From Planctomycetota bacterium (GTDB lineage: Bacteria > Planctomycetota > UBA1135 > UBA2386), in assembly GCA_965228735.1 (NCBI GenBank), contig OZ245838.1:3395997-3459996 (forward strand): a DNA stretch of 64,000 nt. The letters are read 5' to 3'. The notes below the pieces were generated by a model that was not told where the DNA came from, did not search any database, and saw nothing but the letters and a program-made list of their open reading frames with translations. Below, piece after piece: positions 5,908-60,802 of this stretch; within the stretch, counting starts at the first letter, position 1, and the number at the start of each line of letters is the position of its first letter. The translations under genes and the position numbers were made by a program.

Positions 5908-5934
5908 CGGGTCTTGGACGAGCAGTCTACCGCC

Positions 5935-14887: not shown

Positions 14888-17077
14888 TCAGCGGGGCAGG
14901 ACGGCCCACCACTCCGAGTCCGCCCAGGTCGACGGCCCGTTCGGCGCGACGGCCTGCAGGATCTGATTGCAGCGCGCGACGAGCGCCGGGTCCTGACCCG
15001 TGAACACCTCGCGACAGATCAGCACGGCCGGGATCGACCACGGCCAGTAGGTCGGGTTGACGTGCACGTCGGGACTGCCGACCTGATAGCTGCTCGCCGG
15101 CAACGCGTCGCCCTCGCGGTCGCCGAAGCGATACCGCACCGCGGCGCAGAGATGCCACTGCCCGCCCTGCTGGAAGATGCCGTGCCGCGCCACGAGCCGC
15201 GACGCCTCGCGCGCCAGGTCGAGGAAACCCTGCTCCCCGGTGGTGCGCCACGCGGCGAAGAAGCCCATCGCCGCGATGCTGTGCTCCCAGACGATGATCG
15301 CGGGCACGCGCTCCTGCGTGCCTGGCTCGAAGAACGCGTTGTCCGAGCCGATCTTGAGCGCGCGCAGCGGCTTGGCCGGATTGCCGACGAACGGGGCGCC
15401 GAGCCAGTTGGCCTGGATCGTCTGCAGCCGGTCGCGCATCACCTGCCGGAGGTCGGCGCGCTTCTGCGGATCGTCCGAGAGCAGCACCATGTTGGCGAGC
15501 GCCATGAGCAGCCGCCCCTCGCCGCGCGGCTGGTCCATCCAGCCCGGCACCATCGCGAGATCGACCTCGGTGAGATCGCGCAGCTGATCCCGCAGGCCGT
15601 AGCGGCCGGTCAGCGCGAGCAGCGCGTTGAAGTTGTTCTGCGAGCGGTGCTGATCGTCGTAGGTCGACCAGCCGTTGGTCGGCGTACCGAACGGTCGCGG
15701 GCACGGCAGCCCGAGCGTGTCGCCCGTCGTGTTGCAATGCGGCAGCTGCGAGAAGCAGCGCAGGGTCGGGTGGTTGCGGAACCACATCGGCGCGCCGCTG
15801 ATCTCGCGGTAGTGGAAGCCGCGGAACGCCAGCTCGGCCACCGAGTAGGTGGCGTCGTGGATCCAGCGCGAGTCCCCCACCGTGACCGCGAACGCGCCCT
15901 TGCACGCCCCGAAGTCCTCCTGCGCCCCCGTGCTGCCGGCGAACATGTGCAGACCACGGGGTCGGTCCGCGAACAGATCGGCCGGCTGCTGCAACAACCC
16001 GAGGAACCAGGCCCACTGCTTGTTCGCATCGGCCCAACCGTTCGTCGGCTGCGCCGGGCCCGGCACCTCGGGCGTCCGGCCGAACGCGAGCCACTTGTCC
16101 TGCCAGTCGAGCCACGCCCCGGTGCTCGGCGCCTCGCCGCGGGCGTAGAGCGCGTTCACCCGGTCCGCGACGCTCCACTGCAGGCCGAGGCCGAGGGTGC
16201 CGTAGAACGACGGCGCCGGCGTGCGGCCGGGGCCGATGAACCCCTGCATCGCGCCCGTGAGGTAGATGCCTTCCCCGCGCCGGACGACGTCCGCACCGCG
16301 GATCAGCTGCACCCAGTTGCCGTAGCTCGCATGCTGCGGCGCGAAGTTCTGGAACTCGGGGGCCGGCAGGTTGAAGCGGCGACGGAAGTCGAGGTCGAAG
16401 TACTCGCCGCTCTCGAGCCAGATCCCCACGAACCCGTAGTTCATCGTCGGCAGACGCGGGTCGGCGCACGTCAGCGTGCACTCGATCTCCGCCGAGTCCT
16501 GCATCGAGTAGACGTAGATGTAGGCGTCGAAGACGAACGGCGAATCGCCGACGCGACCCCACAGATGGAACACGCGACGTGCCGGCGAGACATCTTCCAC
16601 GACGTCGAAGCGCGGCTGCGTGAGCCGGTGCTCCCGGCCGTCGGTGTCGAGCACGACCGGCATCGGCAACATCGCCGAGGTGTCGTCGGCGACCCAGTCG
16701 CTCATCTGCCACGGGGGCAGATCGAGAGCGTTGTTGGAAACGGGCGTGAGCGTCCCGGTCACGCGCTGTCGCGCTCCGAGCTGCGCCAACACGTGATAGA
16801 GCACCGAGTGCTCGCCGACGGCGCTGCCACGCAACGCCAGCCAGCCGTGCGGATCGACGCGACAGATTCGCGGCAGGTTCGCGGCGTCGACCGCCGGCAC
16901 GGCGACGTCGACCCAGTGTTTGCGCGGCAGATCGGCGAGGTTGTGCAGCGTCAGGTCCTGCGCGCCGAGCGCAGCACCGCCGACACCGCAAGAACCCACC
17001 GCGCACCACAGGGCTGCGACCCGCACCGCGAGAACGAACGCGAGAACTCGCGAGGCAAGAGAGCAGACAAGATGCAT
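14888..17077 (-). CDS. Large secreted hypothetical protein (~729 aa)
   Basis: Signal peptide from MHLVCSLASRVLAFVLAVRVAALWCAVGSCG. Protein-like W/Y/F/N/Q-rich composition, unlike the two overlapping Arg-rich alternative frames. No recognisable catalytic motif. Confidence 0.5.
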   Translation of the reverse strand: MHLVCSLASRVLAFVLAVRVAALWCAVGSCGVGGAALGAQDLTLHNLADLPRKHWVDVAVPAVDAANLPRICRVDPHGWLALRGSAVGEHSVLYHVLAQLGARQRVTGTLTPVSNNALDLPPWQMSDWVADDTSAMLPMPVVLDTDGREHRLTQPRFDVVEDVSPARRVFHLWGRVGDSPFVFDAYIYVYSMQDSAEIECTLTCADPRLPTMNYGFVGIWLESGEYFDLDFRRRFNLPAPEFQNFAPQHASYGNWVQLIRGADVVRRGEGIYLTGAMQGFIGPGRTPAPSFYGTLGLGLQWSVADRVNALYARGEAPSTGAWLDWQDKWLAFGRTPEVPGPAQPTNGWADANKQWAWFLGLLQQPADLFADRPRGLHMFAGSTGAQEDFGACKGAFAVTVGDSRWIHDATYSVAELAFRGFHYREISGAPMWFRNHPTLRCFSQLPHCNTTGDTLGLPCPRPFGTPTNGWSTYDDQHRSQNNFNALLALTGRYGLRDQLRDLTEVDLAMVPGWMDQPRGEGRLLMALANMVLLSDDPQKRADLRQVMRDRLQTIQANWLGAPFVGNPAKPLRALKIGSDNAFFEPGTQERVPAIIVWEHSIAAMGFFAAWRTTGEQGFLDLAREASRLVARHGIFQQGGQWHLCAAVRYRFGDREGDALPASSYQVGSPDVHVNPTYWPWSIPAVLICREVFTGQDPALVARCNQILQAVAPNGPSTWADSEWWAVLPR

Positions 17078-17357
17078 GGCCGAATCGGCCGCCCTACGCA
17101 CCCGAACTGCCCATGGGGTCGAAGAATCCGCAGCAATTCTCGGTGGCTTCGCGAACGTCCTCCACACGTCCGATTCTCGACGCCGCAAACGACGGAGCGC
17201 CGTCGCGCGCGGTCGCGTCACGAACACTGACGACCGCAACGAACGTTACGCGCGATGGCAAGGGCGCGTCGGCAACGTGAGACCGCGTGCTAAGGCCACC
17301 GTCGATTCGTGCCGATTGTGCGGATGCCGTCGCCTCGCCATCGCGACGCCGTAGTTC

Positions 17358-18398
17358 ATGCACGCCATCCGTCTTCTCGCGCTCGCGTTCGTTGCCGTTG
17401 TCGCGACGGCGCTCGCACGCGCGCAGAGCGACGAGCGGATCCGGCCGGTCGCCGAACTCGTGTTCACCGCGTTCCCCGCCGCGGACACCGTGCGCCACAT
17501 CGTGCGCGACGTCGACGAAGCCGCGCGCCGGCAGATCGAGGCGCGTCTGCCGTTCCAGATCCACTTCGAGGACCTCGGCGAACACCGACTGCACGTCGCG
17601 TTCCGCGGCCAGAAGCCCGTCGGCATGATGTTCGTGCGTTCCGAGCAGACGAACTGGGGCATCGCCGACATCGGCTGGGCGATGACGCTCGAGGGCCGCA
17701 TCGTCGGCTTCGCGTTCACCAACGAACGCAGTCAGGAGGCCCGCGAACTGCCGCGCTCGGTGTTCGCCCGCCAGCTCGTCGGCCTCGACTTTCGTGGCTT
17801 GCACGCGCTCGCGGCGCCGCCGGCGACGGCCACCACGCCCGCCACCCCCGCGGGCGAGTCGCGGCCGGTGCGACCGAAGAGCCCGATGTCGCCGACCCAC
17901 CGGATGATCTTGCGGTCGGCGATGAAGGCGACGCTCGTGACCGAACTCGTGTGGCAGGACCAGATCATCGCGCTCGCCGACCTGCAGATGCTGCTCGACG
18001 AACTGCCGGGCAGTCGGCGCGGTCGCCGCGCCGTGCTCCCGGTCACGGGCGAGGCCGTCGCGCGCAGCCTGCGAAGCGGCCGCGTCGTCGAAGCCCGGGG
18101 GCAAAAGGGTACGGCGGTCGGCCAGGTGGCGCGCACCCTCGCGCACGTGCGGTTCGCGACCGGACCGCGCGACGTCGAGCTGATCTGGACGATCGACCCG
18201 ACCGGTCGCGTGCTGCGCGTGCGGCCGGTCGCGTCGTGGGCGAAGGACGACCTGCGCCGCGCGTGCGCCGGGCTGCGCGGCAGGCAGCTCGAAGCGCCGC
18301 TCATGACGGACAATCCGCTCACGCAGGTCGCGCGCGAACTCGCCATCGCGCTGCGCACGGCGCTGCCGTCGCGGCTACCAGCGGGGCTCCCGCGTTGA
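17358..18398 (+). CDS. Secreted/periplasmic protein of unknown function (putative sensor partner of the downstream kinase)
   Basis: Signal peptide (MHAIRLLALAFVAVVATALARAQS). Its TGA overlaps a TTG in the kinase frame, so it may be translationally coupled to the hybrid HK. Confidence 0.5.
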   Translation: MHAIRLLALAFVAVVATALARAQSDERIRPVAELVFTAFPAADTVRHIVRDVDEAARRQIEARLPFQIHFEDLGEHRLHVAFRGQKPVGMMFVRSEQTNWGIADIGWAMTLEGRIVGFAFTNERSQEARELPRSVFARQLVGLDFRGLHALAAPPATATTPATPAGESRPVRPKSPMSPTHRMILRSAMKATLVTELVWQDQIIALADLQMLLDELPGSRRGRRAVLPVTGEAVARSLRSGRVVEARGQKGTAVGQVARTLAHVRFATGPRDVELIWTIDPTGRVLRVRPVASWAKDDLRRACAGLRGRQLEAPLMTDNPLTQVARELAIALRTALPSRLPAGLPR

Positions 18399-21283
18399 AC
18401 ATCAAGGGCTACACCGGGTGGCTCGTCGCCGTCTGCACGGTCACGGGACTCGCGATCGGCTCGGCGCTCGTGATGGGCTACCGCAGCCTCGACGAAGAAG
18501 CCCACCGGCTCGGCGCGGAGTCCCTCGCGATCAAGCAGGTCCACAGCCTCGACGACTACCTCGGCTTCTTCCTCCAGGCCTCCGACCAGGTGCTCAAGGA
18601 AGGCAGCAGCAGCGCCGTCAACACGGCCCTCCTGCACAAGGAACAGTTCGACGACCTCATCGACGGACTCGAGTTCGAACCGCTCGTTGCCGATCGCAGG
18701 GACCTGCTCGACGAGCTCCAGGGCGGCGTTGCGGCGATCCAGGAGTTGACCTGGGAGGGTGCGAAGCTCGACACCGCGGATCCCGGGCCAGAGCTCGAAC
18801 GGCTGTTCGAACGGCAGAACGCGATCGCGGGCCCGCTGCCCGACCTCGTCGCCGACCTCGTGACCCAGATGAACCGGCGCGCGCGCTACCACGAGGAGGA
18901 GCTCGCGGCCGCGCAGTCGTTCCTCGTCGTCCTGACGTGGATCGCGGCGGCGGCCTACCTCGCGATCGTGTTCATGACGTGGCTGTGGTCGGTGCAGACG
19001 ATGGTGCGCCCGATCGAGCAGCTCAGCGTCGCGGCGGAGCTCGCGACGCTCGACAACGACGCGTTCGAGGTCGAATCGAGCGGTCCCGAAGAGGTGCAGC
19101 GCCTCACGCGCAACATCTCGACGTTCGTCCGCACGCGCGCCGACTTCCTCGCGACGATGTCACACGAGCTGCGGACGCCGCTCAACGGCATCATCAACCT
19201 CAACGAGCTGATGCTCGAGACCCGGCTCGACGACGAACAACGCGAGCTCGTGCGGTCCGCGAAGACGGCCGGGGAGTCGCTGCTCGCGATCATCAACGAC
19301 ATCCTCGACTTCTCGAAGATCCAGGCCCGCAAGCTGCAGATCGAGCAGGCCGAGTTCGACGTTCGCGAGCTCGCCGACAGCGCGCTCGAGATCATCGTGT
19401 CGGAAGCTGCGAAGAAGGGGCTCACCGTGCTGGCCAGCGTGGCCGCCGACGTCCCAGCCGCGGTGGTAGGCGACCAGACGCGCCTGCGGCAGGTGCTCGT
19501 GAACCTGCTCAACAACGCGGTGAAGTTCACGACGACGGGCTCCGTCGCGCTGCGGATCGAGATCGCGAACGCAGCCGAAGGGACGGCACGGACCGACACC
19601 GCCGACGAGTCGGCAACCGCCGACTCGGCCGCGCACCAGGATGCGGTAACGTCGGCGGCCGACGGCGACGCGACCCCGACCACCGGCCTGCGGTTCACGA
19701 TTCAGGACACCGGCTGCGGCATTCCACCGAACGCGATCGACACGCTGTTCAAAGCGTTCCAGCAGGGCGACTCGTCGACGACGCGCAAGTTCGGCGGCAC
19801 CGGTCTCGGCCTCGCGATCTGTCGCGAGCTCTGTGCGCTGATGGGCGGCGAGATCGGCGTGGAGAGCGTCGTCGACGAGGGCTCGGAGTTCTGGTTCACG
19901 GTCGCCGTCGCGGCTCCGACCGCCGATACCGCAATCGAGGCCGCGACGACCACGGCAGCATTGCCCGAGGAAGTCAGAAACCGCCGGGTCCTCGTCGCAT
20001 CCAGGCACCCGACGCGGACCGAGGGCATCCTCGCCCAACTTACGGCGATCGGACTCCCGCGCTCGCAGGTCGCGACGTTCGAGAGCGACGGGGGTGAACT
20101 CGCCGAGCAACTCGCGGCGGACTCGCGCGCCTGGGTGCTGTTCGATCCGGAGGACCGCGCGTCGGCCGACCCCGACGAACTGCTTCGCACCATCGCCGGT
20201 CAGCGCAGCGGCGACAGCCGGATCGGCGTGCTGGAATGGCGGGTGCTGCGCGGGCCACGCAACGCGGCGCTGCCGAGCCACGCCGATCGCGTCCCGCTGG
20301 CGACTTCGCTCGCCGGGGTGGAGGACTGGCTGCGCGGCCGACTGGCAATCGACGCCGACGACGACACGCAATGCGACAGCGAGGACAGAACGCGCCGCGT
20401 GCTCGTCGTCGACGACAACCCGGTCAATCGTCGCATCGCGAGTTCGTTCCTCGAGCGGGCCGGCTTCGTCGTCACCTGCGCTGCGGACGGCCAGGAGGCG
20501 ATCGACCAGTTGCTCGAACGCGCCGCCGACGCCGTCCTCATGGACCGGCAGATGCCACGGCTCGACGGTCTCGAGGCGACACGCCGGCTGCGCGAACTCG
20601 AAGGTGGCGATCAGCTCGCGACGGACGGCAACGTCAGGCTGCCGATCATCGGCCTCACCGCGGGGTCCGCGGGCGACGAACTCGATGCCTGCCGCGACGC
20701 CGGCATGGACGACGTGCTGACCAAACCGTTCAAGGCTCGCGATCTCGTCGCTGCCGTGCGCCGCGCCATCGCCGCGCGACCGAACGCGGCAGCGGACCCG
20801 CGGACGGCTCCGGCCGGCGACGGGCCGGCTGCCGAGCCGAGCCACGGCCCGAGCGAACCCGCGGCGAGCGACCGGCGCACGGCGCTCGTCGTCGACGACA
20901 ACGCGATGAACCAACGCGTCGCGAAGGCCGTGATGCAGAAGGCCGGCTTCGACGTCGTCGTCGTCGACAACGGCCAGCTCGCGGTCGACTACCTCGCGGA
21001 CGGGCCGTGCGACATCGTGCTCATGGACTGCCAGATGCCCGTGCTCGACGGCTGGGAGGCCACGCGCGCGATCCGCGAACTCGAGGAGTTCGGCCGACTC
21101 GGTCCGGGCGTCCGTTCGCCGCTGCCGATCCTGGCGGTCACCGCGAACGCGATGGAGGGCGACCGCGAACGCTGCCTCGACGCAGGCATGAACGACCACA
21201 TCAGCAAGCCGATCAAACCGCGGGTCCTGCTCGCGGCCGTCGACAAGTACCTGCGCTCCGGCCGAGCCACCGCGCGCACCTGA
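18395..21283 (+). CDS. Hybrid sensor histidine kinase with two C-terminal receiver domains
   Basis: Two TM helices bracket a ~150-aa periplasmic region. HisKA (MSHELRTPLNGI), HATPase_c (GTGLGLAICRELCALMGGEIGVES), an intervening pseudo-receiver-like linker, then two REC domains (VLVVDDNPVNRRI...DAVLMDRQMP; ALVVDDNAMNQRV...DIVLMDCQMP). Start is inferred at TTG 18395; no in-frame ATG precedes TM1. Confidence 0.85.
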   Translation: MNIKGYTGWLVAVCTVTGLAIGSALVMGYRSLDEEAHRLGAESLAIKQVHSLDDYLGFFLQASDQVLKEGSSSAVNTALLHKEQFDDLIDGLEFEPLVADRRDLLDELQGGVAAIQELTWEGAKLDTADPGPELERLFERQNAIAGPLPDLVADLVTQMNRRARYHEEELAAAQSFLVVLTWIAAAAYLAIVFMTWLWSVQTMVRPIEQLSVAAELATLDNDAFEVESSGPEEVQRLTRNISTFVRTRADFLATMSHELRTPLNGIINLNELMLETRLDDEQRELVRSAKTAGESLLAIINDILDFSKIQARKLQIEQAEFDVRELADSALEIIVSEAAKKGLTVLASVAADVPAAVVGDQTRLRQVLVNLLNNAVKFTTTGSVALRIEIANAAEGTARTDTADESATADSAAHQDAVTSAADGDATPTTGLRFTIQDTGCGIPPNAIDTLFKAFQQGDSSTTRKFGGTGLGLAICRELCALMGGEIGVESVVDEGSEFWFTVAVAAPTADTAIEAATTTAALPEEVRNRRVLVASRHPTRTEGILAQLTAIGLPRSQVATFESDGGELAEQLAADSRAWVLFDPEDRASADPDELLRTIAGQRSGDSRIGVLEWRVLRGPRNAALPSHADRVPLATSLAGVEDWLRGRLAIDADDDTQCDSEDRTRRVLVVDDNPVNRRIASSFLERAGFVVTCAADGQEAIDQLLERAADAVLMDRQMPRLDGLEATRRLRELEGGDQLATDGNVRLPIIGLTAGSAGDELDACRDAGMDDVLTKPFKARDLVAAVRRAIAARPNAAADPRTAPAGDGPAAEPSHGPSEPAASDRRTALVVDDNAMNQRVAKAVMQKAGFDVVVVDNGQLAVDYLADGPCDIVLMDCQMPVLDGWEATRAIRELEEFGRLGPGVRSPLPILAVTANAMEGDRERCLDAGMNDHISKPIKPRVLLAAVDKYLRSGRATART

Positions 21284-21299
21284 CGAACCGGACCTAGAC

Positions 21300-24200
21300 A
21301 TGCCGAACCGTGACCACGATTCCAGAGAGCGCGATCCGAGAGACCGCGACGCCCAGCTCGAACGCGACGGCCAGGGCCCGATGCGCGCGCGCCTCGGCGG
21401 TGAGACGGTGGAGCCGCGCATCCTGCTCTCGGCAACCTGGCTCGTCGACATCATCACGACGCCACCACCCGACATCCTCGGGGTCACCGGCACCGATGGC
21501 GCGGACCGCCTCGTCGGCACGATCGGAGAGGACAGCATGTACGGGGGTGGCGGTGACGACGTGCTGGTGGTTCAGGACAACGACGATGGCGACGATGACG
21601 ATGACGACCGCAGCGTTCTCGACGGCGGGACCGGTCGCGACGTCGTCGACTTCGGCGCGTCCGCGGCCGGCACGACCATCGACCTGTCCGCCGGCACCGC
21701 GATCGGTGGCGGCGGTTCGACCACGCTGACCAACATCGAGGGCGCCTACGGCTCGTCGCACGCCGACGTGTTCGCGTTCGCTTCGGCGGCGGCCGGCGAC
21801 GAGTTCACCGTCGTCGGCAACGGCGGCCAGGACTTCCTCGACCTCCAGAAATACGACTCGAGCGCCGCCACGTTCGAGAACGGCGCGCTCGTGATCGACC
21901 TCGGCGGGGGCGAGTCGTTCCGGATCAACTACGACGAGGTCGAGCGGATCCAGTTCGGAGACGTGCTCGCGAAGGTCCTGACCGGCGACCACGTCAACAC
22001 GTCGTTCACGGGCGACGGTCTCTACGTGTTCGAGGACACCGCCTTCGCGCTGTCCTTCACGGGCGGCGGCGACCTCGACTGGCGGTTCGACGCGACGACG
22101 GACACGATCACGGTGAATGGGTCGGCCGGCGCGACGGCCGGCACGGAGCTCGTCATCGACGATCTGGGCCGGAGCCCGATCACGGTCTCGACGATCACCC
22201 TGAGCGAGAACCTGCGGGCGATCTCGAGCTCGGCCGACGTCGACAACCTCGATCTCAACGGCTTCGACGTCGACACCGTGACCGTCGGCAACGGCACGGG
22301 GACCATCGGCACGCTCGTCACGCCCACCATCGACAGCGACCTCTCGGTCAACGCCAACGTGACGACCGTCACGATCGCGGGCGACATCGACCGCGCGGTC
22401 ACGATCGGCGGCAACGTCGGCTCGATCGATGCGCAGACGATCAACGGCCCCCTCGCGATCTCCGGCGACGCCGGGACCCTGACCGCCGACACGATCAACG
22501 GCGACGTGACGATCAAGGGCGACCTCGGGAGCGCCACCGTCACGACGTTCCAGACCTCGGCCACGCTGCGGGTCGACAACCCGACGGGTATCGTCAACCT
22601 CACGTTCGGCGGCAGCGACCGCAGCTTCGACACCGGCGACGAGCCGTTCGTCTACCGCGCGGCGGTCGACGCGTTCAACCTCGTGCCGATCGCTCTCGCC
22701 GGCAGCGACCAGGTCGTGCAGGAAGGCGACGCCGTCGGGCTCGACGGCCGCGGCTCGACCGATCCGAAGACCACCGGCCTGACCTACCGCTGGACGCAGG
22801 TGTCCGGGCCGGCCGTCACGCTGATCGACGGCGACACCGCGACGCCGCGCTTCACGGCTCCCGAGGGCCTCGTGAACACCACGATCGAGTTCGAGCTCCA
22901 GGTCGACGACGGCGAGGACGTCGCGGTCGATCGCGTCGTCGTGACCGTCCAGGCCGACAACGACGCCCCGATCGCGAACGCGGGCACCGACCGCATCGTG
23001 GCCGAAGGGAACGCGACCGCGTTGGACGGCCGCGGCAGCGTCGACCCCGAGGCTCAGGGCCTGACCTACTCGTGGCGGCAGATCAGTGGCCCGCCCGTGA
23101 CGCTCGTCAACCCGACGGCCGCGGTCACCGGCTTCGTCGCGCCCGAGGGCCTCGCCAACTCCGTCGCACAGTTCGAACTCACGGTCTCGGACGGCGCATC
23201 CGCGAGCGTCGACACCGTGTCGGTCATCATGCTCGCCGACAACGACGCTCCGACCGCGAACGCGGGCGCGGACCAGACGGTCGACGAGGGCGACACGATC
23301 GTCCTCGACGGCAGCGGCAGCACCGATCCCGAGAACGGCACGCTGAGCTACGCGTGGCAACAGGTCTCGGGCCCGCCGGTCCAGATCGTGGCGGCCGACC
23401 AGCCGCTCGCGCAGACCGACGCCGACGGGTCGTCGTTCACGACGTTCACCCGGACGGCCGACGGGCGCGTGCACTTCATCGCGCCGGAAGGCCTGAGCAA
23501 CACGACGGCCACGTTCCGGCTCATCGTCGACGACGGCACGACGCGCAGCATAGACACCGTGACCATCACGATCCGCGCCGACGACGACGCTCCGACCGTC
23601 GACGCCGGCCCCAACCGCCAGATCACCGCGGGCGAAGTCGTGAAGCTCGCGGCCGACGGGCGCGACCCGGAGAACCAGCCGCTGAGCTACCGCTGGGTGC
23701 AGCTGTCGGGCCCCACGGTCACGCTGTCCGACCCCACCGCGGAGTCACCGACGTTCCAGGTGCCGACCGGCCACACGGGCGAGATGGTCGTGTTCGGGGT
23801 GCAGGCCTCGGACGGCACGTCGACCTCGTTCGACACGGTCGCGATGCGGATCGAGAACTCGCCCCCGGTCGTCGTCGCCGGCAGCGCGGGCAACGCCGAG
23901 TCGGGTGAATCGGTCGGACTCTCGGCCTTCGCTCAGGACGTCGACGGCGACGACCTCACCTACCGCTGGACGCAGGTCGGTGGGCCGAGCGTCAACCTCG
24001 CGGGCACGGACCTGCCGAACGCGACGTTCCAGGCCCCCGAGGTCTCGGGCACGACGCAGCTGCGCTTCCAGATCGAGGTCAACGACGGCCAGACGACGAC
24101 GGTCCAGTTCGTCACCGTCGAGGTCGAACCCGAATCGGCGGCGAACTCCAAGACGCCGGGCGGCCCGGTCGCGACGCCCGTCGGCGTGGTGTCGCCGGGC

Positions 24201-24947
24201 GAACCCGAACCCGAACCCGATCCGGGGGCGGGCTCGAGCGGCAACGCCGGGACGACCGCGAACGAAGGCTCGCCGCCAACGACGGGCACGACCACGACCG
24301 GCTCGACCACGACGAGCGAACCGGACGACGCCGACCCGGCGGCCGATGCCCTCGACCCGTTCGACAACGGTCTCCTCGCGTCGCCGTCCGACGCCGCCGA
24401 CGCCGACGCCGACGCGCTGCGTTCCGCCGGCGACGACCGCGCGAGCGACGACCAGACGGCGAACGATGCCACGGCCGACGACGATCTGGCTGCGAACGCC
24501 ACCGTCGATGCCGACGCCCAGACGCTGGCGGACGACGCACCGATCCTCGCGCTCGCGGGCTCCGAGGTGGAGCTCGAGTCGTTCTTCCTCGCCCAGGACA
24601 CCGCGGAACCGACGCAGGTGACCTGGACGCAGCTCTCGGGCACGGCGGTCGACTTCGCGAGCGAGGGCGCGCAGCTCAGGATCCAGCTGCCGGAGTCGTT
24701 CACCGCCGAGGAGCTGGTCTTCGAGGTCGAGATGATGATCGACGGCGAGATCCGCGTGCAGGAGATCACCGTCGCGGTGCAGCCGGTCGACGCGGAGCAG
24801 CGCACCAACGCGACGCCGAAGTTGCCGGAGCGCCAACTCGCGGACCTCGACAACCCGACCGACAGCGAGTCGCGCGGCGTCGGCAAGCTCTGGGCCGCGC
24901 TCGTCGCGTTCACGAGCGCCGGGCCCACCCGACTGCCGAGGAGCTGA
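21300..24947 (+). CDS. Giant RTX-like calcium-binding, PKD/Ig-repeat adhesin-like protein with no N-terminal signal peptide
   Basis: N-terminal charged leader without a signal peptide. GGxGxD nonapeptide-like repeats (GTDGADRLVGT, YGGGGDDVLVV, DGGTGRDVVDF). Six ~95-aa repeats of the ANAGxDxxVxEGxxVxLDGxGSxDPE...LxYxWxQxSGPxVTL type (PKD/K319L-like). Acidic Ala/Asp/Thr-rich C-terminal region. Starts 17 nt after the HK stop. Confidence 0.75.
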   Translation: MPNRDHDSRERDPRDRDAQLERDGQGPMRARLGGETVEPRILLSATWLVDIITTPPPDILGVTGTDGADRLVGTIGEDSMYGGGGDDVLVVQDNDDGDDDDDDRSVLDGGTGRDVVDFGASAAGTTIDLSAGTAIGGGGSTTLTNIEGAYGSSHADVFAFASAAAGDEFTVVGNGGQDFLDLQKYDSSAATFENGALVIDLGGGESFRINYDEVERIQFGDVLAKVLTGDHVNTSFTGDGLYVFEDTAFALSFTGGGDLDWRFDATTDTITVNGSAGATAGTELVIDDLGRSPITVSTITLSENLRAISSSADVDNLDLNGFDVDTVTVGNGTGTIGTLVTPTIDSDLSVNANVTTVTIAGDIDRAVTIGGNVGSIDAQTINGPLAISGDAGTLTADTINGDVTIKGDLGSATVTTFQTSATLRVDNPTGIVNLTFGGSDRSFDTGDEPFVYRAAVDAFNLVPIALAGSDQVVQEGDAVGLDGRGSTDPKTTGLTYRWTQVSGPAVTLIDGDTATPRFTAPEGLVNTTIEFELQVDDGEDVAVDRVVVTVQADNDAPIANAGTDRIVAEGNATALDGRGSVDPEAQGLTYSWRQISGPPVTLVNPTAAVTGFVAPEGLANSVAQFELTVSDGASASVDTVSVIMLADNDAPTANAGADQTVDEGDTIVLDGSGSTDPENGTLSYAWQQVSGPPVQIVAADQPLAQTDADGSSFTTFTRTADGRVHFIAPEGLSNTTATFRLIVDDGTTRSIDTVTITIRADDDAPTVDAGPNRQITAGEVVKLAADGRDPENQPLSYRWVQLSGPTVTLSDPTAESPTFQVPTGHTGEMVVFGVQASDGTSTSFDTVAMRIENSPPVVVAGSAGNAESGESVGLSAFAQDVDGDDLTYRWTQVGGPSVNLAGTDLPNATFQAPEVSGTTQLRFQIEVNDGQTTTVQFVTVEVEPESAANSKTPGGPVATPVGVVSPGEPEPEPDPGAGSSGNAGTTANEGSPPTTGTTTTGSTTTSEPDDADPAADALDPFDNGLLASPSDAADADADALRSAGDDRASDDQTANDATADDDLAANATVDADAQTLADDAPILALAGSEVELESFFLAQDTAEPTQVTWTQLSGTAVDFASEGAQLRIQLPESFTAEELVFEVEMMIDGEIRVQEITVAVQPVDAEQRTNATPKLPERQLADLDNPTDSESRGVGKLWAALVAFTSAGPTRLPRS

Positions 24948-25036
24948 GATGCCGACACGGCCGCAGCATGACGACTTCGGGAAAACCACGAACTCGGGGA
25001 TGACCCAGGGTCGATGAGTCAGGTGGGGAAAACACG

Positions 25037-25930
25037 ATGACGAGCAGACTTGGATTCCTGGGATGCGGCGCCGTTCTGACGGTGCTCGGTTGGCCCGGTG
25101 AGTGGAACGCCACGCCGGCCCCCACGGCGCCGCCGGTGTCGCGACCGCTGATCGGCGTCACGGTCCCGAGCCAGGTCGCGCAGGTCGCGCCCGAACAGGC
25201 CGGCAAGATCGTCGACATGCCGTTCAAGGCCGGTGATCGCGTCACGCGCGACCAGGTGCTCTTCCGGCTCAACTCGACGCTGCAGGAACTCGAGGTCGAA
25301 CGGCTGCGGCCACTCGCGGAGTCGGATCTCGTCGTCCGGCGCGCGACGGCCGAGCTCGCACACGAGCGGCAGAAGACGGCGCGGTTGCGCGACCTCGAGG
25401 ACCAGGAGATCACGAGCGCCGCCGACCTGCTCGATCAGGTCCACCGCGAGACCGTCGCCGAGCTCAAGCTGCAGCAGGCCCGGATCGAACAGGGCCAGGC
25501 TCGAAACCGCCTCGCGCAGGCGATCGAGCGGCTGGAGCAACAGTCCGTTCGCAGCCCGTTCGACGGCATCGTGACCCTGCGCATGAAGAGCGCGGGCGAG
25601 AGCGTCGAACGCTTCGTCCCCGTGCTCGAGGTGATGAGCTTCGATCCGCTGTGGATCGAGTTCGATTGCCCGACGCACCGCATCCGCGAGTTCGAAGCCG
25701 GCACCCGCATCGAGGTCACGCCGGCACGCCAGCCGGACGAGAAGCGCACGGCCGTGGTCGAGTTCGTCTCGCCCAAGGGCAACGCGGCGAGCCACACGCT
25801 GATGGTGCGCGCGACCCTGAGGAATCCGAGCGGCGCCGAGTCGTGGGGCTCCGGACTCAAGGTCCTCGTCCAACGACTGGAGCAACCGACCGGCCAACCG
25901 GCGGCCCGCCCGGCCCGACCCGGCAAGTGA
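25037..25930 (+). CDS. HlyD-family periplasmic adaptor (membrane fusion protein)-like
   Basis: N-terminal signal/anchor. Biotin-lipoyl-like hairpin (DMPFKAGDRVTRDQVLFRLNS) and coiled-coil followed by a beta-barrel segment (VRSPFDGIVTLRMKSAGESV), typical of HlyD/RND adaptors. Confidence 0.7.
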   Translation: MTSRLGFLGCGAVLTVLGWPGEWNATPAPTAPPVSRPLIGVTVPSQVAQVAPEQAGKIVDMPFKAGDRVTRDQVLFRLNSTLQELEVERLRPLAESDLVVRRATAELAHERQKTARLRDLEDQEITSAADLLDQVHRETVAELKLQQARIEQGQARNRLAQAIERLEQQSVRSPFDGIVTLRMKSAGESVERFVPVLEVMSFDPLWIEFDCPTHRIREFEAGTRIEVTPARQPDEKRTAVVEFVSPKGNAASHTLMVRATLRNPSGAESWGSGLKVLVQRLEQPTGQPAARPARPGK

Positions 25931-25970
25931 GCCCGAGCGCGCACCGCCAGGAGAACACCGAAGAACTGCC

Positions 25971-26399
25971 ATGAACGACCGCCACGAACCCGAAGGCTCG
26001 ATCGACGAGCTGCTCGACGATCTCGAGATCCGCTGCGCCACGGGCGTCGGCGCGGCTCGCCACGTGTCCTCCTCGCGGCGTCGGATGGCGATCGCGATCC
26101 GCCCCGGCAACGTCCACGAACGCGGGAGCGCGAACCCGGCCATCGCCGGTGAGAGCACCGAGTTCCGACGCCAGGGACTGACCCTGCGAACGGCACGCCC
26201 GCTGATGGTCGGCGACATCTTTCACCTGACGTTCGACGCGCCCGACTACGACGTCGCGCCGGTCCTCGCGATGTGCGAGCGCTGCTCGATGCTCGGGACG
26301 GACTCGTTCGAAGTGCGCTTCCTGCTCGTGCGCGAGCCCGACCTACCGGAGCCACAACCGTTCGCCCCGGCGGGCACGGACGACGAGCTCGACTCGTAG
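25971..26399 (+). CDS. Small PilZ-like (putative c-di-GMP-binding) protein
   Basis: 142 aa. Arg cluster (SSSRRRMAIAIR) followed ~10 residues later by an NxAxxG variant of the DxSxxG motif (NPAIAG). Weak; domain assignment by motif only. Confidence 0.45.
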   Translation: MNDRHEPEGSIDELLDDLEIRCATGVGAARHVSSSRRRMAIAIRPGNVHERGSANPAIAGESTEFRRQGLTLRTARPLMVGDIFHLTFDAPDYDVAPVLAMCERCSMLGTDSFEVRFLLVREPDLPEPQPFAPAGTDDELDS

Positions 26400-26437
26400 C
26401 ACGAAGAACCGCCGGCGGCCATCCCACACGAACGACA

Positions 26438-28303
26438 GTGACCGATACCGAACAGACCACACCGCGGCCAGCAAGCGGCAACGCGCTGAGCCTGACGGCG
26501 CTGCAGTGCGACCTGCGCACGCTGCTGGCCAACCGGCCGACGAACCGTGCTCTGCTCGGCGTCCTGCAGCACATCGGCGACCGGCTCGGCGCGGTCTACG
26601 CCGTCGTGCACGCTCGGCTCGGCGTCCATCTGTTGTCGGAGGAGTGGCAACCGCCGCGGAACGAAATCGACAGCGACGCTCGCGACTTCGTGAACTCGCG
26701 GTTGTGGGAAGCGATCTCGGCCGAGGAAGCGCTGTGCACCCGGGTCCCCGGCGGCGGCGTGCTGATCGCCGCGATCATGTACGACGGCGACATCGAGCCG
26801 TCGGGCGGTGCCGGCATCGTCGTCGAGGACTGCGACAAGCAGGAGGCGATGCTGATCCTCGCGCAGCTCGAGGGCGTGCTCGGCTTCCTGTCCCTGCTGC
26901 TCGGCGAGCGCATCACGGACTCGACGCAGCTCGCCGAACGCCGCGCGATCGAACCGCACGCGGCCGCCAGTCACCCGACGCGCCTCGCCTACGCCGTCAT
27001 CAGCGAGGTCGAAGCGCGCTACGGCTGCGACCTCACGGCGATCGGCTTCGTGAACGGCAACCGCGTCGAGGTGGCGGCCGTCAGCGGCGTCGAAGAACTG
27101 CGACAGGCCAACCCCGGCGTCGCCGTGCTGCGGGCGGCGATGGAGGAGTGCCGCGATCGCGGCGCTCCGATCGTCTGCGCGCCGAACGCCCGCGGCGCAG
27201 GCGGCGGCGGCGAGGGCGACGAAGTGAACGACGACTGCCGCCTGCACGCGCAGTGGAGCGCGGCGAACAACGGCAACGCCGTCGCGTCACTGCCGTTGAT
27301 CTCGATGAACGAGGTCGTCGCCGTAGTCTCGATGGCCCAGGGTGCGGGCACGCAGCTGACTGCCGCCCAGATCGAGCTCATCGCGGAGGAGCTGTCGGGC
27401 TACGCCGACCTCGTGCCGCTGACGCGCTCCGCCGCGCGCGGCCTCGTCGCGCACACCCGCGACGCGGTCCGGGACGGGCTCCGGCGCCTGTTCGCGCCGG
27501 GCGGCCGCCGGCTGCTCGCGATGCTGTTGATGTTCGCGGGACTGTCGACCTGGCTCGCGATGGGCACGCTCCACCACACGTTCACGGTGCCGTGCGTCGT
27601 GAAGGCCAAGGAACGGCGAACGATCGCGTGTCCGCGCAACGGCGTGCTGACGGAGCTGTTCGCGCAACCGGGCGACCGGGTGCGGGCGGGCCAGTTGCTC
27701 GCCGCGCTCGACGCGAACGAGGAGTTCCTGCGCCGCGCCGAGCTCACGGCCGAGATCGAGTCGCTCGACGCGCTCATCGACGCGGCCGTCGCGGACCGCG
27801 CAGCCGGCCAGCTGCGCGTGCACGAGGCCAAGCGGCAGAGCGTCGCCGCCGAGCTCGCCGTCGTCGACGAACGGATCGGCCAGTCGCAGATCCGGGCGCC
27901 GCAAGACGGCCTCATCCTCGAGGGCGATCTCCGCGAGAGCCTCGGCGGGCGCATCAAGATGGGCGAGCCGCTGTTCGAGCTGGCCCGCTACGACCAGGCG
28001 TCGATCGAGCTGCGCATCCCCGAACGGCTCGTTCTCGCGGCCCTTGATCAGGTCGCGGTCGAGTTCGCCCCGACCGCGCGCCCGAGCGACGCGCTGGCCG
28101 TCAGCGAGCTTCGCATCGCGCCGGCCAGCACGGTGCTCGAAGGCACGAACGTGTTCCTCGGCGAAGGCACGGTCCCCATCGACCTCGGCGCGCTGCCGCC
28201 GGGGATGGAGGGCACCGCCCTGATCGACGCCGGTCCGCGCTCGGCCTGGTGGGTGCTCACCCACCGCGTCACCGACTGGCTGCGGCTCAACTTCTGGCTG
28301 TGA
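26438..28303 (+). CDS. HlyD-like adaptor with a large N-terminal cytoplasmic GAF-like domain
   Basis: N-terminal ~400 aa soluble region (GAF-like fold inferred), a single TM (LLAMLLMFAGLSTWLAMG), then HlyD-like lipoyl hairpin (LFAQPGDRVRAGQLLAALD), coiled coil and beta-barrel (IRAPQDGLILEGDL). Start taken at GTG ~26438 (VTDTEQ); uncertain. Confidence 0.6.
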   Translation: MTDTEQTTPRPASGNALSLTALQCDLRTLLANRPTNRALLGVLQHIGDRLGAVYAVVHARLGVHLLSEEWQPPRNEIDSDARDFVNSRLWEAISAEEALCTRVPGGGVLIAAIMYDGDIEPSGGAGIVVEDCDKQEAMLILAQLEGVLGFLSLLLGERITDSTQLAERRAIEPHAAASHPTRLAYAVISEVEARYGCDLTAIGFVNGNRVEVAAVSGVEELRQANPGVAVLRAAMEECRDRGAPIVCAPNARGAGGGGEGDEVNDDCRLHAQWSAANNGNAVASLPLISMNEVVAVVSMAQGAGTQLTAAQIELIAEELSGYADLVPLTRSAARGLVAHTRDAVRDGLRRLFAPGGRRLLAMLLMFAGLSTWLAMGTLHHTFTVPCVVKAKERRTIACPRNGVLTELFAQPGDRVRAGQLLAALDANEEFLRRAELTAEIESLDALIDAAVADRAAGQLRVHEAKRQSVAAELAVVDERIGQSQIRAPQDGLILEGDLRESLGGRIKMGEPLFELARYDQASIELRIPERLVLAALDQVAVEFAPTARPSDALAVSELRIAPASTVLEGTNVFLGEGTVPIDLGALPPGMEGTALIDAGPRSAWWVLTHRVTDWLRLNFWL

Positions 28304-28318
28304 CGCGGAACTCTTGAG

Positions 28319-30490
28319 ATGACCGGGCAAGCGGCAACGACGACGACGGCCACGGCCGATCGGAACGAGCGCGTGCTCGGGCCGCTCAAGGTCGGCCTGC
28401 GCCGCGACCTGCACTTCACGCGCCAGGCCACGCGCGGCGGGCCGCGTTACATCGCGCACGACCCGGTGACGTTCGAGAATCACGCGTTCGGCGCGGCCGA
28501 CTACCAGGTGATCACGGCGATCACGCACGAACGCACGCTGTCGGCGACGTTCGAGCAACTCGTCATGCGCGGCCTCGTCGAGGACACCGCGGATGGTCGC
28601 GACGGGTTCTATCGCTTCGTCATCTGGCTGCACGGCAAGGGCCTCGTGCACCTGCCGATCGGCAACGGCGACCTGCTCTGGGACCGGCACAACGAACGGC
28701 GAGAGCAACATCGCACGGCGTGGTACCGCACGCTGATGTACCACAAGGTGCCGCTCGGCAGTCCGGATGCGTTCTTGCGGCGCACGATGCCGCTGTTCGG
28801 CTGGCTCTTCTCGGTGCCGGGCCTCCTGCTCTGGACGGCGCTCATGGGGCTCGTCGCGTGGAAGTGCTTCGGCCGCTTCGACGAGCTGTTCGGCCAGGCC
28901 CGGGGTCTGCTCACGATCGCGAACCTGCCGCTGCTCTGGGGCGCGCTCGTCGTGCTCAAGGCCCTGCACGAGTTCGGGCACGCGTACGCGTGCCGGCGTT
29001 TCGGCGCCGCGGTGCCCGAGATGGGCGTCGTGCTGATCATGCTCACCCCGTGCGCCTACGTCGACGCGAGTGCGTCGTGGCGGCTCGATTCACGCCGCCG
29101 GCGGGCCATCGTCGCGCTCGGCGGCATGTACGTGGAATCGATCATCGCGGCCCTCGCCGCGCTCGTCTGGCTCGGCACCCCCCCGGGCTTCGTGCACGAC
29201 CTCGCGCTCAACGTCGTCGTGCTCGCGAGCGTCGTCACCGTGCTCTTCAACATCAATCCGTTGATGAAGTACGACGGCTACTACCTGTTCTCGGACGTGG
29301 TGGGCGTGTTCAACCTGCAGCAGCGGTCCGCCGAGTTCTTGAACGCCTGGGTCGCGCACCTCGTGCTCGGCAGCCCACGGCCGCAGCACGACTACGCCCC
29401 GAGCGAACGCTGGCTCTACGCGACGTTCGGACCCGCGACCGTCGTGTATCGCATGTTCCTCGCGTTCGCGATCACCGCGCTCGTGATGGCGCAGTGGCCC
29501 GGCGCCGGTTTGTTCCTCGCCGCGGTGTTCTTCTACGGGCTCGCGATCCAGCCGACGCTGCGGCTCCTGCTGCGCCTGTGGCGGAACGATGCGCCCGCGC
29601 AACGCGTGCGCAGCCGCCTCGTCGCGGTGAGCCTCGTGACGATCCTGCCGATGCTCGCGAGCATGGTGCCGATCTCGTGGCACGTCACCGCTCCCGGCAT
29701 CCTCGATCCGCAGTCGCGCGAGACGGTCCGCGCTCCCGCCGCGGGCTTCGTCGTCGAGCTCGACCATGCGATCGGCGATGCGGTCAGCAAGCACGACCGC
29801 CTCGGCCGCCTCGAGAACCCGGATCTCGAGGCTCGCCACCGCAAGATGCGGAACGAGCTGCTCGCCGAGCGCACGAGCCTCGACGCGATCGAGCTCGAGG
29901 ACCCGACGCAGGCCGCGATCCACCGCTCCCGCATCGACTTCCTCGAAGCCGGCGTGACGGAGCTGAAGAGTCAGCTCGACGCGATGACGTTGACCGCGGC
30001 GACCACGGGTCGGATCGCGAACCCCGAACGGCACGACTGGCGCGGGCGGTTCGTCCAACAGGGCGAGGAGCTGCTGCAGGTGCACTCGGAGCACCGCTTC
30101 CTGCGCGTCGTGCTCACCGACGAAGCCGTGTCGCGCACGCGGCTCGAGGTCGGCTCGCAGGCGATCGTGCGCTTCACGTGTGATCCGACGCGCGCGATCC
30201 AGGCCACGGTGCGCGACATCAAGAAGTCGGCGTCGCGCGAACGGATCCCGCTCGCGCTCACGATGCTCGCCGGCGGCGACGTCTACGCGCGCCCGCTCGC
30301 GGAAGGCAGCGCGTACGCGGTCGCCGACGAGCCGTACCTGCACATCCTGCTCGAGGTCGAGGACGTGCCGCTGGTCGATCGCGGCGCGGGGCTGACCGCG
30401 CGCGTGCAGTTCGACGCGCGCATCGAGTTGTTCGGCGCGTGGCTGCATCGCCGCGTGGTCGGGTTCTTCAACTCGTGGCGGATGTCGTAG
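28319..30490 (+). CDS. M50 (site-2-protease-like) membrane metalloprotease domain fused to a C-terminal HlyD-like adaptor domain (YydH-like)
   Basis: HExxH within a TM helix (LKALHEFGHAYACRRFG) and second M50 motif (LFNINPLMKYDGYYLF). Multiple TM helices. C-terminal barrel-sandwich/HlyD-like region (VTAPGILDPQSRETVRAPAAGFVVEL...GRIANPER). Confidence 0.75.
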   Translation: MTGQAATTTTATADRNERVLGPLKVGLRRDLHFTRQATRGGPRYIAHDPVTFENHAFGAADYQVITAITHERTLSATFEQLVMRGLVEDTADGRDGFYRFVIWLHGKGLVHLPIGNGDLLWDRHNERREQHRTAWYRTLMYHKVPLGSPDAFLRRTMPLFGWLFSVPGLLLWTALMGLVAWKCFGRFDELFGQARGLLTIANLPLLWGALVVLKALHEFGHAYACRRFGAAVPEMGVVLIMLTPCAYVDASASWRLDSRRRRAIVALGGMYVESIIAALAALVWLGTPPGFVHDLALNVVVLASVVTVLFNINPLMKYDGYYLFSDVVGVFNLQQRSAEFLNAWVAHLVLGSPRPQHDYAPSERWLYATFGPATVVYRMFLAFAITALVMAQWPGAGLFLAAVFFYGLAIQPTLRLLLRLWRNDAPAQRVRSRLVAVSLVTILPMLASMVPISWHVTAPGILDPQSRETVRAPAAGFVVELDHAIGDAVSKHDRLGRLENPDLEARHRKMRNELLAERTSLDAIELEDPTQAAIHRSRIDFLEAGVTELKSQLDAMTLTAATTGRIANPERHDWRGRFVQQGEELLQVHSEHRFLRVVLTDEAVSRTRLEVGSQAIVRFTCDPTRAIQATVRDIKKSASRERIPLALTMLAGGDVYARPLAEGSAYAVADEPYLHILLEVEDVPLVDRGAGLTARVQFDARIELFGAWLHRRVVGFFNSWRMS

Positions 30491-30510: not shown

Positions 30511-30530
30511 TGTCAATCACTGCATTGACA
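30511..30530. promoter_or_regulatory. Perfect palindrome TGTCAAT-N6-ATTGACA (candidate operator) overlapping a sigma70-like -35/extended -10 (TTGACA-N16-TGaTAGGGT)
   Basis: Read directly: tgtcaatcactgcattgaca, 20 nt after the stop of the M50-HlyD gene. Its 3' half is TTGACA, with TGaTAGGGT 16 nt downstream. Low local GC. Confidence 0.4.
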
Positions 30531-30994
30531 GATCGAGGACATCTGATAGGGTTCCGCGCCCCAATGAGTCACCTATCAAGACAACCGGCGCGAGCGTACC
30601 CCACGCCATCCGCCACGCGCGCAGGAATTGCGACGCCCGACTGACGGCTCGACCTCGACATTCGTCGACGAGAGAGTGTTCTCAGTCGCCGCGCCGCAGA
30701 GCCTCGCCCGGAAGCCCCGAGCGAGGCTCTCTTGGTTTTGGCGCGTGATTGCGGCTCGCAGCGCTCGGGTCCCGTGACCCGGAACGCCCGCCCATCATCG
30801 AACTCGAGAACGAGGAGAAGCACGAATGAACGTCCAACACAGCATCCAGAACGGCTGACGTCGTCCGGCGGCGCGAGCCGGCTGCGACCACTCCGGTGGC
30901 CGTATCGCCGGCCCGTGTTCCGCGACAACGGGTTCTGCCGGCGTCACCGATCCGGAACCGAGCCTGCGGTTGCAGGTGGCAGAGCCATGCTCAT

Positions 30995-31011
30995 GCGGGT
31001 TCGAATCCCGC
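30995..31011 (+). other. tRNA-like T-arm (GCGGG-TTCGAAT-CCCGC) inside a ~950-bp non-coding gap; no complete tRNA found
   Basis: Exact tRNA/tmRNA-type T-loop GGTTCGAATCC with a 5-bp stem. The 7 nt that follow (acctgac) have no complementary 5' acceptor strand within 100 nt upstream. Confidence 0.35.
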
Positions 31012-31295
31012 ACCTGACTTCGGATCAGGCCGCCCAGATCAGGGAACACCTGACGAGGGCTCCCGCGTTCGGCCGGCGCCCCGTCCCTTACAGCCATCCT
31101 ATGACGGTGTGCGAGAGCATACCTGTCCATAGGCACCGCCTGATATCGCCTTGTATGCACGGTACGCGTCGCGGCAGCGACGTGGTCACGCCACCGGTAT
31201 GCCCGTTGCGCCCATTCGAAGGGGACGGCGCGCGGCGACCGGACGGGACCGCGAAGCGCCGCGGCGAACCGTCCATCCGCGACGACGGCGGGGCA

Positions 31296-54740: not shown

Positions 54741-54744
54741 CCGG

Positions 54745-60697: not shown

Positions 60698-60802
60698 TGG
60701 CGTACGGAACCTGGTTCAAACCGCAAGGCTGCTACGCGAGCCGCCTTCGGCGGCTCTCGCGTAGCAGCCTTGCGGTTTGAACCAGGTTCCGTACGCCATC
60801 AC
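60692..60802. repeat. ~110-nt near-perfect inverted repeat (two ~50-nt arms, ttc loop, one 2-nt bulge) spanning the stop codons of both convergent genes
   Basis: Read directly: ccgtgatggcgtacggaacctggttcaaaccgcaaggctgctacgcgagccgcc-ttc-ggcggctctcgcgtagcagccttgcggtttgaaccaggttccgtacgccatcacgg. Both genes end ...ccg tga (Pro-stop) inside the arms. Confidence 0.8.

Follow-up and report, generated by a model that had tools for sequence, protein, structure and literature searches.

A conserved Planctomycetota gene cluster linking a giant repeat protein to three membrane fusion adaptors, one predicted to carry an RRE domain and an M50 protease

Seven consecutive forward-strand genes, referred to as g1 to g7, were analysed at positions 17358-30490 of a 64-kb window from a Planctomycetota genome (64,000 nucleotides of contig OZ245838.1; positions are those of this window). 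The cluster encodes a hybrid histidine kinase with its partner protein (g2 and g1), a giant repeat protein (g3) and a four-gene module of three adaptors of the membrane fusion protein (MFP) type and one small PilZ-family protein (g4 to g7). On the best-supported reading, g3 is a putative substrate of the adjoining module. Genes were called by frame analysis of third-position GC (GC3) in the window, which is ∼70% G+C, combined with Pfam and NCBIfam searches, and all seven were supported in this way (Table 1). The TTG start of g2 overlaps the stop codon of g1 and the later genes follow with spacings of 17, 90, 41, 39 and 16 nt (start minus the previous gene's end), so that the arrangement described in an earlier reading of the sequence (the original prediction) was borne out. 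The next gene upstream, at 14888-17239, lies on the opposite strand and is divergent from g1. It is a 783-aa open reading frame (ORF) with a strong coding signature and no Pfam match, and a 118-nt promoter region is common to it and g1. Neighbouring genes with PSCyt/PSD and DUF1552 domains identify the host as a planctomycete.

Table 1. Coordinates of the genes, domains, motifs and likely terminator of the g1-g7 cluster.
Feature	Position	Strand	Description
g1	17358..18398	+	346 aa, hydrophobic N-terminal signal; supported by GC3 frame; accessory partner of the kinase
g2	18395..21283	+	Hybrid histidine kinase (Pfam matches); accessory to the module
g3	21300..24947	+	1,215-aa putative substrate; K319L-like_PKD match
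g3 N-terminal leader-like motif LGGETVEPRILLSATW	21393..21440	+	g3 residues 32-47
g3 PKD domains	22698..24149	+	Five K319L-like PKD domains
g3 C-terminal motif RGVGKLWAALVAFTSAGPTRLPRS	24873..24944	+	g3 residues 1192-1215
g4	25037..25930	+	297-aa periplasmic adaptor of RND/MacA MFP type with long alpha-hairpin
g5	25971..26399	+	142-aa PilZ-family protein, degenerate (no RxxxR, no DxSxxG)
g6	26438..28303	+	GTG start; GAF-containing cytoplasmic part, transmembrane helix, periplasmic MFP domain
g6 GAF domain	26990..27397	+	Within the cytoplasmic domain
g6 transmembrane helix	27512..27568	+	g6 residues 359-377
g7	28319..30490	+	Predicted RRE domain, polytopic M50 metalloprotease, periplasmic MFP domain with alpha-hairpin
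g7 RRE domain	28391..28636	+	Predicted from the modelled fold
g7 M50 domain	28763..29662	+
g7 HEFGH	28967..28981	+	g7 residues 217-221
g7 NINPLMKYDG	29249..29278	+	g7 residues 311-320
g7 MFP domain	29669..30430	+	With alpha-hairpin
Hairpin then U-rich tract	30698..30740	+	-28.4 kcal/mol, z -2.8; likely operon terminator

The product of g7 matched Peptidase_M50 and HlyD_3 in Pfam, and the HEFGH and NINPLMKYDG sequences by which an M50 fusion had originally been recognised were found in it. Both were invariant in the alignment of homologues, with HExGH present in 82/82. The protein thus has the HExxH within a transmembrane (TM) helix and the NxxPxxxxDG with third zinc ligand that define site-2 proteases; no PDZ or CBS domain was matched in Pfam. 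The closest curated families were the daptide HExxH protease (NF041824, 2.4e-38) and YydH/LiaK (NF058609, 7e-08), with scores below the NCBIfam cut-offs in both cases (132.3 bits vs 300 and 32.4 bits vs 225). Residues 1-140 are conserved throughout the family and, like g1 and g5, gave no Pfam match even at E ≤ 10. This segment was predicted with a pLDDT of 90 as a three-stranded sheet and three helices in a winged-helix fold, which matches the solved PqqD-like recognition elements (RREs) of ribosomally synthesised and post-translationally modified peptide (RiPP) pathways, namely those of TigE, TbtB, MibB, PbtF, LynD and NisB. Sequence-only searches of the PDB with the PilZ, RRE, GAF and g1 profiles returned no significant match. 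In a full-length AlphaFold2 model (pLDDT 78) the RRE is followed by a linker helix, then by a polytopic helical part and lastly by a periplasmic domain; this domain, which has a two-helix hairpin, matches MacA, MexA, AcrA and EmrA. Given the modelled fold and the match of the periplasmic domain to known adaptors, g7 is predicted to be a fusion of RRE, M50 protease and MFP. The RRE is placed in the cytoplasm because it is N-terminal to ∼7 TM helices. In site-2 proteases the M50 active site faces the cytoplasm, and by this precedent that of g7 would do the same. Hundreds of word-index matches to g7 were obtained, all of ∼710 aa, and a full scan with a hidden Markov model (HMM) retrieved 5,514 representatives of 50%-identity clusters at E ≤ 1e-30, the 150th match still being full length at 1e-184.

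The original assignment of three HlyD-type adaptors was confirmed. The product of g4 scored above the cut-off of TIGR01730 RND_mfp (120.8 bits vs 94.9) and matched HlyD_D23 at 8.2e-20, and HlyD_D23/HlyD_3 domains were present in g6 and g7, the g7 model adding the structural likeness described above. In g6 a cytoplasmic domain of ∼358 aa containing the GAF region is followed by a single TM helix and a HlyD-type C-terminal half (HlyD_D23, 2.1e-09). The GAF-like and PilZ-like labels given earlier to g6 and g5 hold at family level, while the window's own copies fall below the Pfam thresholds. GAF or GAF_2 was matched in 10-11/14 members of the g6 family (best 1.1e-10) vs 0.0037 for the window copy, and PilZ (PF07238) in 14/26 members of the g5 family (best 5.9e-11), the window copy being matched via the family HMM only. 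Neither of the binding motifs for cyclic di-GMP (c-di-GMP), RxxxR and D/NxSxxG, is present in g5 or its clade. Among 72 homologues both motifs were present in 45 and DxSxxG alone in 52. Small pilZ genes located after giant genes have been described in an Omnitrophota preprint.

Conservation of the cluster was assessed in annotated contigs and 80 GTDB loci, giving 82 non-redundant loci in which all ORFs were searched with iterated HMMs; individual loci are referred to by labels such as L005. The core module consists of the g4 adaptor, g5 PilZ, g6 GAF-TM-MFP and g7 M50-MFP, and its order is kept across ∼80 Planctomycetota loci. A g6 homologue was found in 78 of the 82 loci, g5 in 71, and g4 in 59 upstream and a further 11 downstream. 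Clustering of the neighbourhoods gave no further conserved gene family within 10 kb of the 80 loci, save for a TolC-family OEP gene (PF02321) that lies between g7 and g4 on the opposite strand in 4/82 loci, all of a rearranged Pirellulales type (L057 12134-13801 (-), L072 11843-13405 (-), and the equivalents in L059 and L066). The linked OEP proteins have an N-terminal lipobox followed by GPDY or GPDF. A two-gene variant was also recovered (L004 8361-12121; also L039, L013, L030 and L053). Ahead of its g7 homologue lies the gene of a 546-aa protein that has an AAA_33 P-loop domain and is matched by the g6 and g4 HMMs as well; these loci contained no PilZ gene and no small adaptor.

No transport ATPase was linked to the module. 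No ABC (ATP-binding cassette) transporter, TolC or SecA was found among the large GC3-supported ORFs of the 64-kb window, nearly all of which were scanned, in agreement with the original statement that no ABC transporter or TolC follows g3. Within 10 kb of the 80 loci no ABC exporter, other translocase or ATPase, or SecA_DEAD gene was recurrent. The neighbourhood clustering likewise gave no conserved anti-sigma factor, extracytoplasmic function (ECF) sigma factor, RND, MFS or ABC pump near the module, and Pfam and NCBIfam searches of the cluster gave no LapD- or LapG-like domains (degenerate GGDEF-EAL, periplasmic cysteine protease).

The giant g3 had been described as an RTX/PKD-repeat protein without a signal peptide. 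The PKD part was upheld by the five K319L-like domains (K319L-like_PKD, 1.4e-56); the RTX part was sub-threshold (HemolysinCabind, 3e-4, 21.1 bits vs a cut-off of 23). A scan for TM and signal segments detected no signal peptide and no hydrophobic segment anywhere in g3, as had been claimed. After its leader-like N-terminus the protein has one RTX-like nonapeptide region and then the five PKD domains, which an acidic linker separates from a final PKD-like domain. Within the N-terminus the motif LGGETVEPRILLSATW is preceded by a charged segment of 31 aa and followed by GxxGxD repeats. The same architecture, an 18-40-aa charged segment, then xLxxExxE(P/A)RILLSATW(V/I), then GxxGxD repeats, was found at a constant distance from the start in 17 ORFs of related loci in addition to g3, and every one of these adjoins the module. 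They include four loci ordered g5-g6-g7-(OEP)-g4-giant and one locus with a divergent giant. Motif scans found no further copy of this N-terminal tag in the locus flanks or in the remainder of the window.

At the other end of g3, RGVGKLWAALVAFTSAGPTRLPRS comprises a short hydrophobic or amphipathic stretch and a basic tail. Close relatives show it as RGxGKxWxALxAF…R, whereas the distant form is GFxAxLWGLxRGxxG…RR. An HMM of this C-terminal tag matched 52 of 3,809 ORF tails, of which 51 lie directly upstream of a module, the remaining one belonging to a second giant in tandem. Because the same sequences had served as seeds for the HMM, the informative part is that none of the other tails matched. 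An ORF bearing the tag ends just upstream of the module in 50/77 informative loci, with more in rearranged loci, and PKD-type homologues of g3 are directly upstream in 34/61 loci with enough upstream sequence. The linkage to a PKD/RTX giant is thus conserved, as the original prediction had proposed for checking. Under both gene orders g4 and the giant remain adjacent, and where a metagenome-assembled genome contains 2-3 modules, each adjoins a giant whose tag differs from those of the others. On this evidence g3 is best read as the putative substrate of the adjoining module, marked by its N- and C-terminal motifs. These two motifs and the RRE of g7, all missed in the original prediction, are the strongest mechanistic clues at the locus. 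Word-indexed protein searches with the N-terminal 53 aa and the C-terminal 136 aa of g3 returned nothing usable. Several PKD/RTX genes occur in tandem upstream of the module in L001 (1-6673) and L006 (1-6644); two tandem giants of L006 bear the C-terminal tag, and the short ORFs of L001 that start inside PKD repeats may be frameshifts or repeat assembly errors.

The hybrid histidine kinase called originally at g2 was recovered with HisKA (9.4e-21), HATPase_c (1.4e-26) and Response_reg (5.4e-52) matches and two REC domains. Its TM helices at residues 10-28 and 176-194 flank a periplasmic domain of ∼145 aa. The g1 protein has a TM or signal segment at residues 1-19 and no match in Pfam, NCBIfam or the PDB. 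Homologues of g1 were located directly upstream of the kinase in four non-redundant loci (L005, L009, L014 and L025) and a same-strand upstream kinase was recognisable in 8-9 loci; g1 and g2 are accessory to the module. A hybrid kinase upstream on the same strand was accompanied by a PilZ protein without DxSxxG in 8/8 loci, and such a kinase was present in 0/52 of the loci with DxSxxG. A CHASE-type hybrid kinase is located downstream of the module in L086. The kinase-linked loci with degenerate PilZ are probably a single clade and were counted as one evolutionary event. The co-occurrence of PilZ motif loss and kinase linkage suggests that in the clade of the window the input has shifted from c-di-GMP to a phosphorelay. 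A LapD-type c-di-GMP input, as the original prediction had envisaged, is unlikely at this locus, where the PilZ protein has lost both motifs.

The hairpin listed in Table 1 lies ∼210-250 nt past the end of g7, within a downstream gap of 660 nt, and is the likely terminator of the operon. It is kept in a 68%-identical relative, and an 86%-identical block 3' of the g7 homologue in L007 was recovered, the hairpin being the sole block conserved downstream of g7. A promoter scan detected nothing, a terminator scan gave matches at chance level, and the g3-g4 gap had no significant RNA structure. A near-perfect palindrome, TGTCAATCACTGCATTGACA, is located in an AT-richer patch at 30512-30531, ∼20 nt past the g7 stop codon, and from its sequence could be a candidate operator or protein-binding site. 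A tRNA T-arm-like string, GGTTCGAATCCCGC, is present at 30990-31012 in the gap between g7 and a Band_7 gene; ARAGORN found no tRNA and Rfam no family in the 660-nt gap. A small peptide substrate encoded 3' of g7 was considered and rejected, as the ORFs in this position in L004 and L086 are mutually unrelated.

Elsewhere in the window, a secretin gene (PF00263, 4e-37) at 4264-8594 (-) adjoins one gene with weak likeness to T2SSK and another that encodes a UDP-GlcNAc 2-epimerase; this is a separate, predicted type II or pilus-like secretion locus ∼9 kb upstream of g1-g7. A 1,009-aa protein at 51786-54815 (-) combines an ECF sigma factor (regions 2 and 4) with Big_1 and four CarboxypepD_reg repeats, and a similar sigma-repeat fusion was observed at the edge of L004. 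Another large PKD-repeat protein, at 60799-63999 (-), is cut by the window end; motif scans gave no EPRILLSATW leader and no C-terminal tag in it, its N-terminus being outside the window.

Taken together, the cluster is read as a substrate with a dedicated, leader-dependent processing and export machine of the envelope, to which a probability of about 0.45 is assigned. The original prediction had suggested that the adhesin has a machine of its own for export or regulated proteolysis, and this remains the best-supported reading. It is favoured because a predicted leader reader and a protease are fused to an adaptor, next to a cargo that has no Sec signal and has a leader-like N-terminus; the tight gene spacing and the terminator after g7 also support it. 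The g3 protein would be synthesised in the cytoplasm with neither a Sec nor a Tat signal; its N-terminus would be a leader of ∼47 aa that closes with EPRILLSATW, and its C-terminus would bear the LWxxL/basic tag. RiPP leaders are bound by RREs through strand addition, and the cytoplasmic RRE of g7 may bind one of the terminal peptides of g3, most likely the N-terminal leader, and hand it to the fused intramembrane M50 zinc protease for cleavage on the inner side of the membrane. The MFP domains of g4, g6 and g7 would build a MacA/AcrA-like periplasmic sleeve docking onto a TolC-family channel encoded elsewhere. The giant could then cross the envelope N-terminus first, with the leader-proximal Ca-binding GxxGxD repeats folding outside and acting as a ratchet. 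This direction is suggested because repeats of the Ca-binding type directly follow the leader; in type I substrates the RTX repeats adjoin a C-terminal signal. The GAF domain of g6 and the PilZ protein g5 may serve as cytoplasmic gating or adaptor parts. In the clade of the window, where the PilZ protein would not bind c-di-GMP, control would probably pass through the co-transcribed kinase g2 and its periplasmic partner g1.

Several points weigh against this reading. About a dozen modules, for example those of L003, L005 and L038, have no adjacent giant. As no translocase or ATPase is linked to the module in the window or in the 80 loci, the passage of a protein of 1,200 to >2,800 aa across the inner membrane is unexplained by the linked genes, and no M50 protease is known to us to be a channel. 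Peptide binding and cleavage by g7 are predictions from sequence and model, and its RRE could bind something other than g3 peptides. Export and surface location of the giant are assumed from its domain types, and the proposed mechanism gives the C-terminal motif no role.

A conventional type I secretion system (T1SS), with its ABC transporter and TolC encoded beyond the 64 kb covered by the search, would account for the MFP fold of the adaptors, for a substrate with RTX-like repeats, a conserved C-terminal tag and no signal peptide, and for the OEP gene linked in four loci; the tag would then be an ordinary T1SS signal and the M50 protease would serve in trimming or quality control. In T1SS loci, however, the ABC and MFP genes are normally adjacent, and no ABC gene was found within 10 kb of any of the 80 loci or in the window. 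The RTX-like repeats of g3 are N-terminal, beside the leader-like motif, instead of near the C-terminus as in T1SS substrates, and known T1SS offer no place for a fusion of an RRE-protease with an adaptor. This explanation is considered unlikely. Considered improbable to the same degree is a Lap-style switch of retention and release, in which the giant is exported by another route and anchored by one of its terminal motifs until the M50 protease cuts the anchor under the control of PilZ, GAF or the kinase, the adaptors positioning the protease under an outer-membrane channel. The list of parts fits such a switch (giant adhesin-type protein, protease, second-messenger-type domains and kinase), canonical PilZ motifs occur in 45-52/72 family members, and the hydrophobic/basic C-terminal tag could be the anchor. 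The hydrophobic stretch of that tag is, however, too short or too interrupted by Arg to span a membrane, and no LapD- or LapG-like protein was found. The Lap analogy of the original prediction also differs in topology: the Lap protease is periplasmic, whereas the recognition domain of g7, preceding the TM helices, is cytoplasmic, as its active site would be by site-2 protease precedent. Export itself would still be unexplained.

Less probable again is a RiPP-like system for maturation and export of a small unannotated peptide, with the giant as an incidental neighbour. The RRE fold points that way, as do the closest curated families, which are M50 leader peptidases of daptides and epipeptides, and there is precedent in the M50 enzyme EpeP, thought to cleave and export its peptide according to a review (PMC10885120). 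The NCBIfam scores are nevertheless far under the cut-offs (132 vs 300; 32 vs 225), the neighbourhoods lack both modifying enzymes and conserved small ORFs, and the sole conserved neighbour is the giant with its leader-like motifs. Regulated intramembrane proteolysis for signalling, with g7 as a site-2 protease that cuts a membrane regulator, or a small-molecule efflux or envelope-stress module unrelated to g3, whose adaptors would work with a drug pump, is regarded as very unlikely. In its favour, g7 has the M50 signature motifs, g4 matches RND_mfp and a kinase is in the operon. Against it, neither anti-sigma or ECF sigma factors nor pumps of the RND, MFS or ABC type recur near the module, Pfam gave neither a PDZ nor a CBS domain, and the RRE domain and the motif-bearing neighbour would be left unexplained.

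The module itself has been reported in part. Using bioinformatics, Kamneva, Poudel and Ward (2015; PMC4452313) described a secondary SecA_DEAD gene that in Planctomycetes and further phyla is surrounded by GAF-HlyD, M50(-HlyD) and HlyD/Biotin_lipoyl genes, and proposed a T1SS-related function for the SecA_DEAD-associated module. Judged from the passages of that paper that concern the module, it has in common with g4-g7 three adaptor-type proteins including GAF and M50 fusions, the lack of an ABC transporter, an occasional OEP gene, a function that is likewise unassigned, and Planctomycetes among its hosts. It differs in that the g1-g7 locus has no SecA_DEAD ATPase and has a small PilZ protein instead. 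The same passages make no mention of an RRE, PilZ, an adjacent giant or substrate, terminal motifs or a kinase link, and full-text literature searches found no later work on this gene combination. The claim that the linkage was undescribed therefore needs amending: the module has been partly known since 2015, and it is the pairing with a substrate and the RRE domain that are absent from those passages.

Among characterised systems, the T1SS (HlyBD-TolC, and LapBCE with LapA) has in common with the locus a signal-peptide-less giant with Ca-binding repeats, an MFP adaptor with alpha-hairpin, adjacency of substrate and machinery, and dependence on a TolC-family channel, a role that is only proposed here. 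In contrast to T1SS and Lap systems, g1-g7 has no ABC exporter, LapD or LapG, has three adaptors of which two are fused, and has repeats and a leader-like motif at the N-terminus; lacking an ABC exporter, it fails the defining test of a T1SS. Peptidase-containing ABC transporters (PCATs) with a HlyD-type accessory protein, which export bacteriocins, share the logic of a leader-recognising cytoplasmic protease fused to an export apparatus, which removes an N-terminal leader and passes its cargo to an MFP-assisted route. They use a C39 cysteine peptidase and an ABC domain, whereas g7 has a predicted RRE and M50 without ABC, and the cargo here would be a protein of >1,000 aa and not a peptide. 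RiPP M50 proteases (EpeP/YydH, the daptide HExxH protease, TglG/TmoG) are likewise polytopic HExxH proteins acting on soluble precursors at the membrane, but g7 scores below the family cut-offs, is fused to an MFP and has no RiPP precursor or tailoring enzyme nearby. In alginate export, Alg44 is a PilZ-TM-MFP co-polymerase whose sensing domain gates export of the polymer. The resemblance to g6 lies in the succession of cytoplasmic ligand-sensing domain, single TM helix and periplasmic MFP domain; in g6 the fused sensor is a GAF domain, PilZ is a separate small protein, and the cargo would be a protein and not a polysaccharide. The locus thus fails the tests for T1SS, PCATs, the Lap system and the curated RiPP protease families, and shares logic with each.

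In its most extended form the preferred reading would describe an unrecognised secretion system of Planctomycetota, in which an RRE-guided intramembrane metalloprotease-adaptor and two further adaptors, without an ABC protein, export giant Ca-binding surface proteins N-terminus first after leader cleavage. Energy might come from Ca-dependent folding of the repeats outside the cell or from a further partner, and gating might be through c-di-GMP and PilZ in most lineages and through a phosphorelay here. This extended form is regarded as doubtful.

Planctomycetota encode many giant surface proteins without signal peptides, and the locus offers a concrete pairing of such a substrate with a machine. 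In g7, a leader-peptide reader of a kind known from RiPP biosynthesis would be combined with an intramembrane protease and a TolC-docking adaptor, in a large family of which none of the 5,514 cluster representatives has been characterised. If the proposed system is real, a trans-envelope protein exporter can be built without an ABC ATPase, RRE domains extend from peptide natural products to protein secretion, and the cargo set of these bacteria could be predicted from sequence tags.

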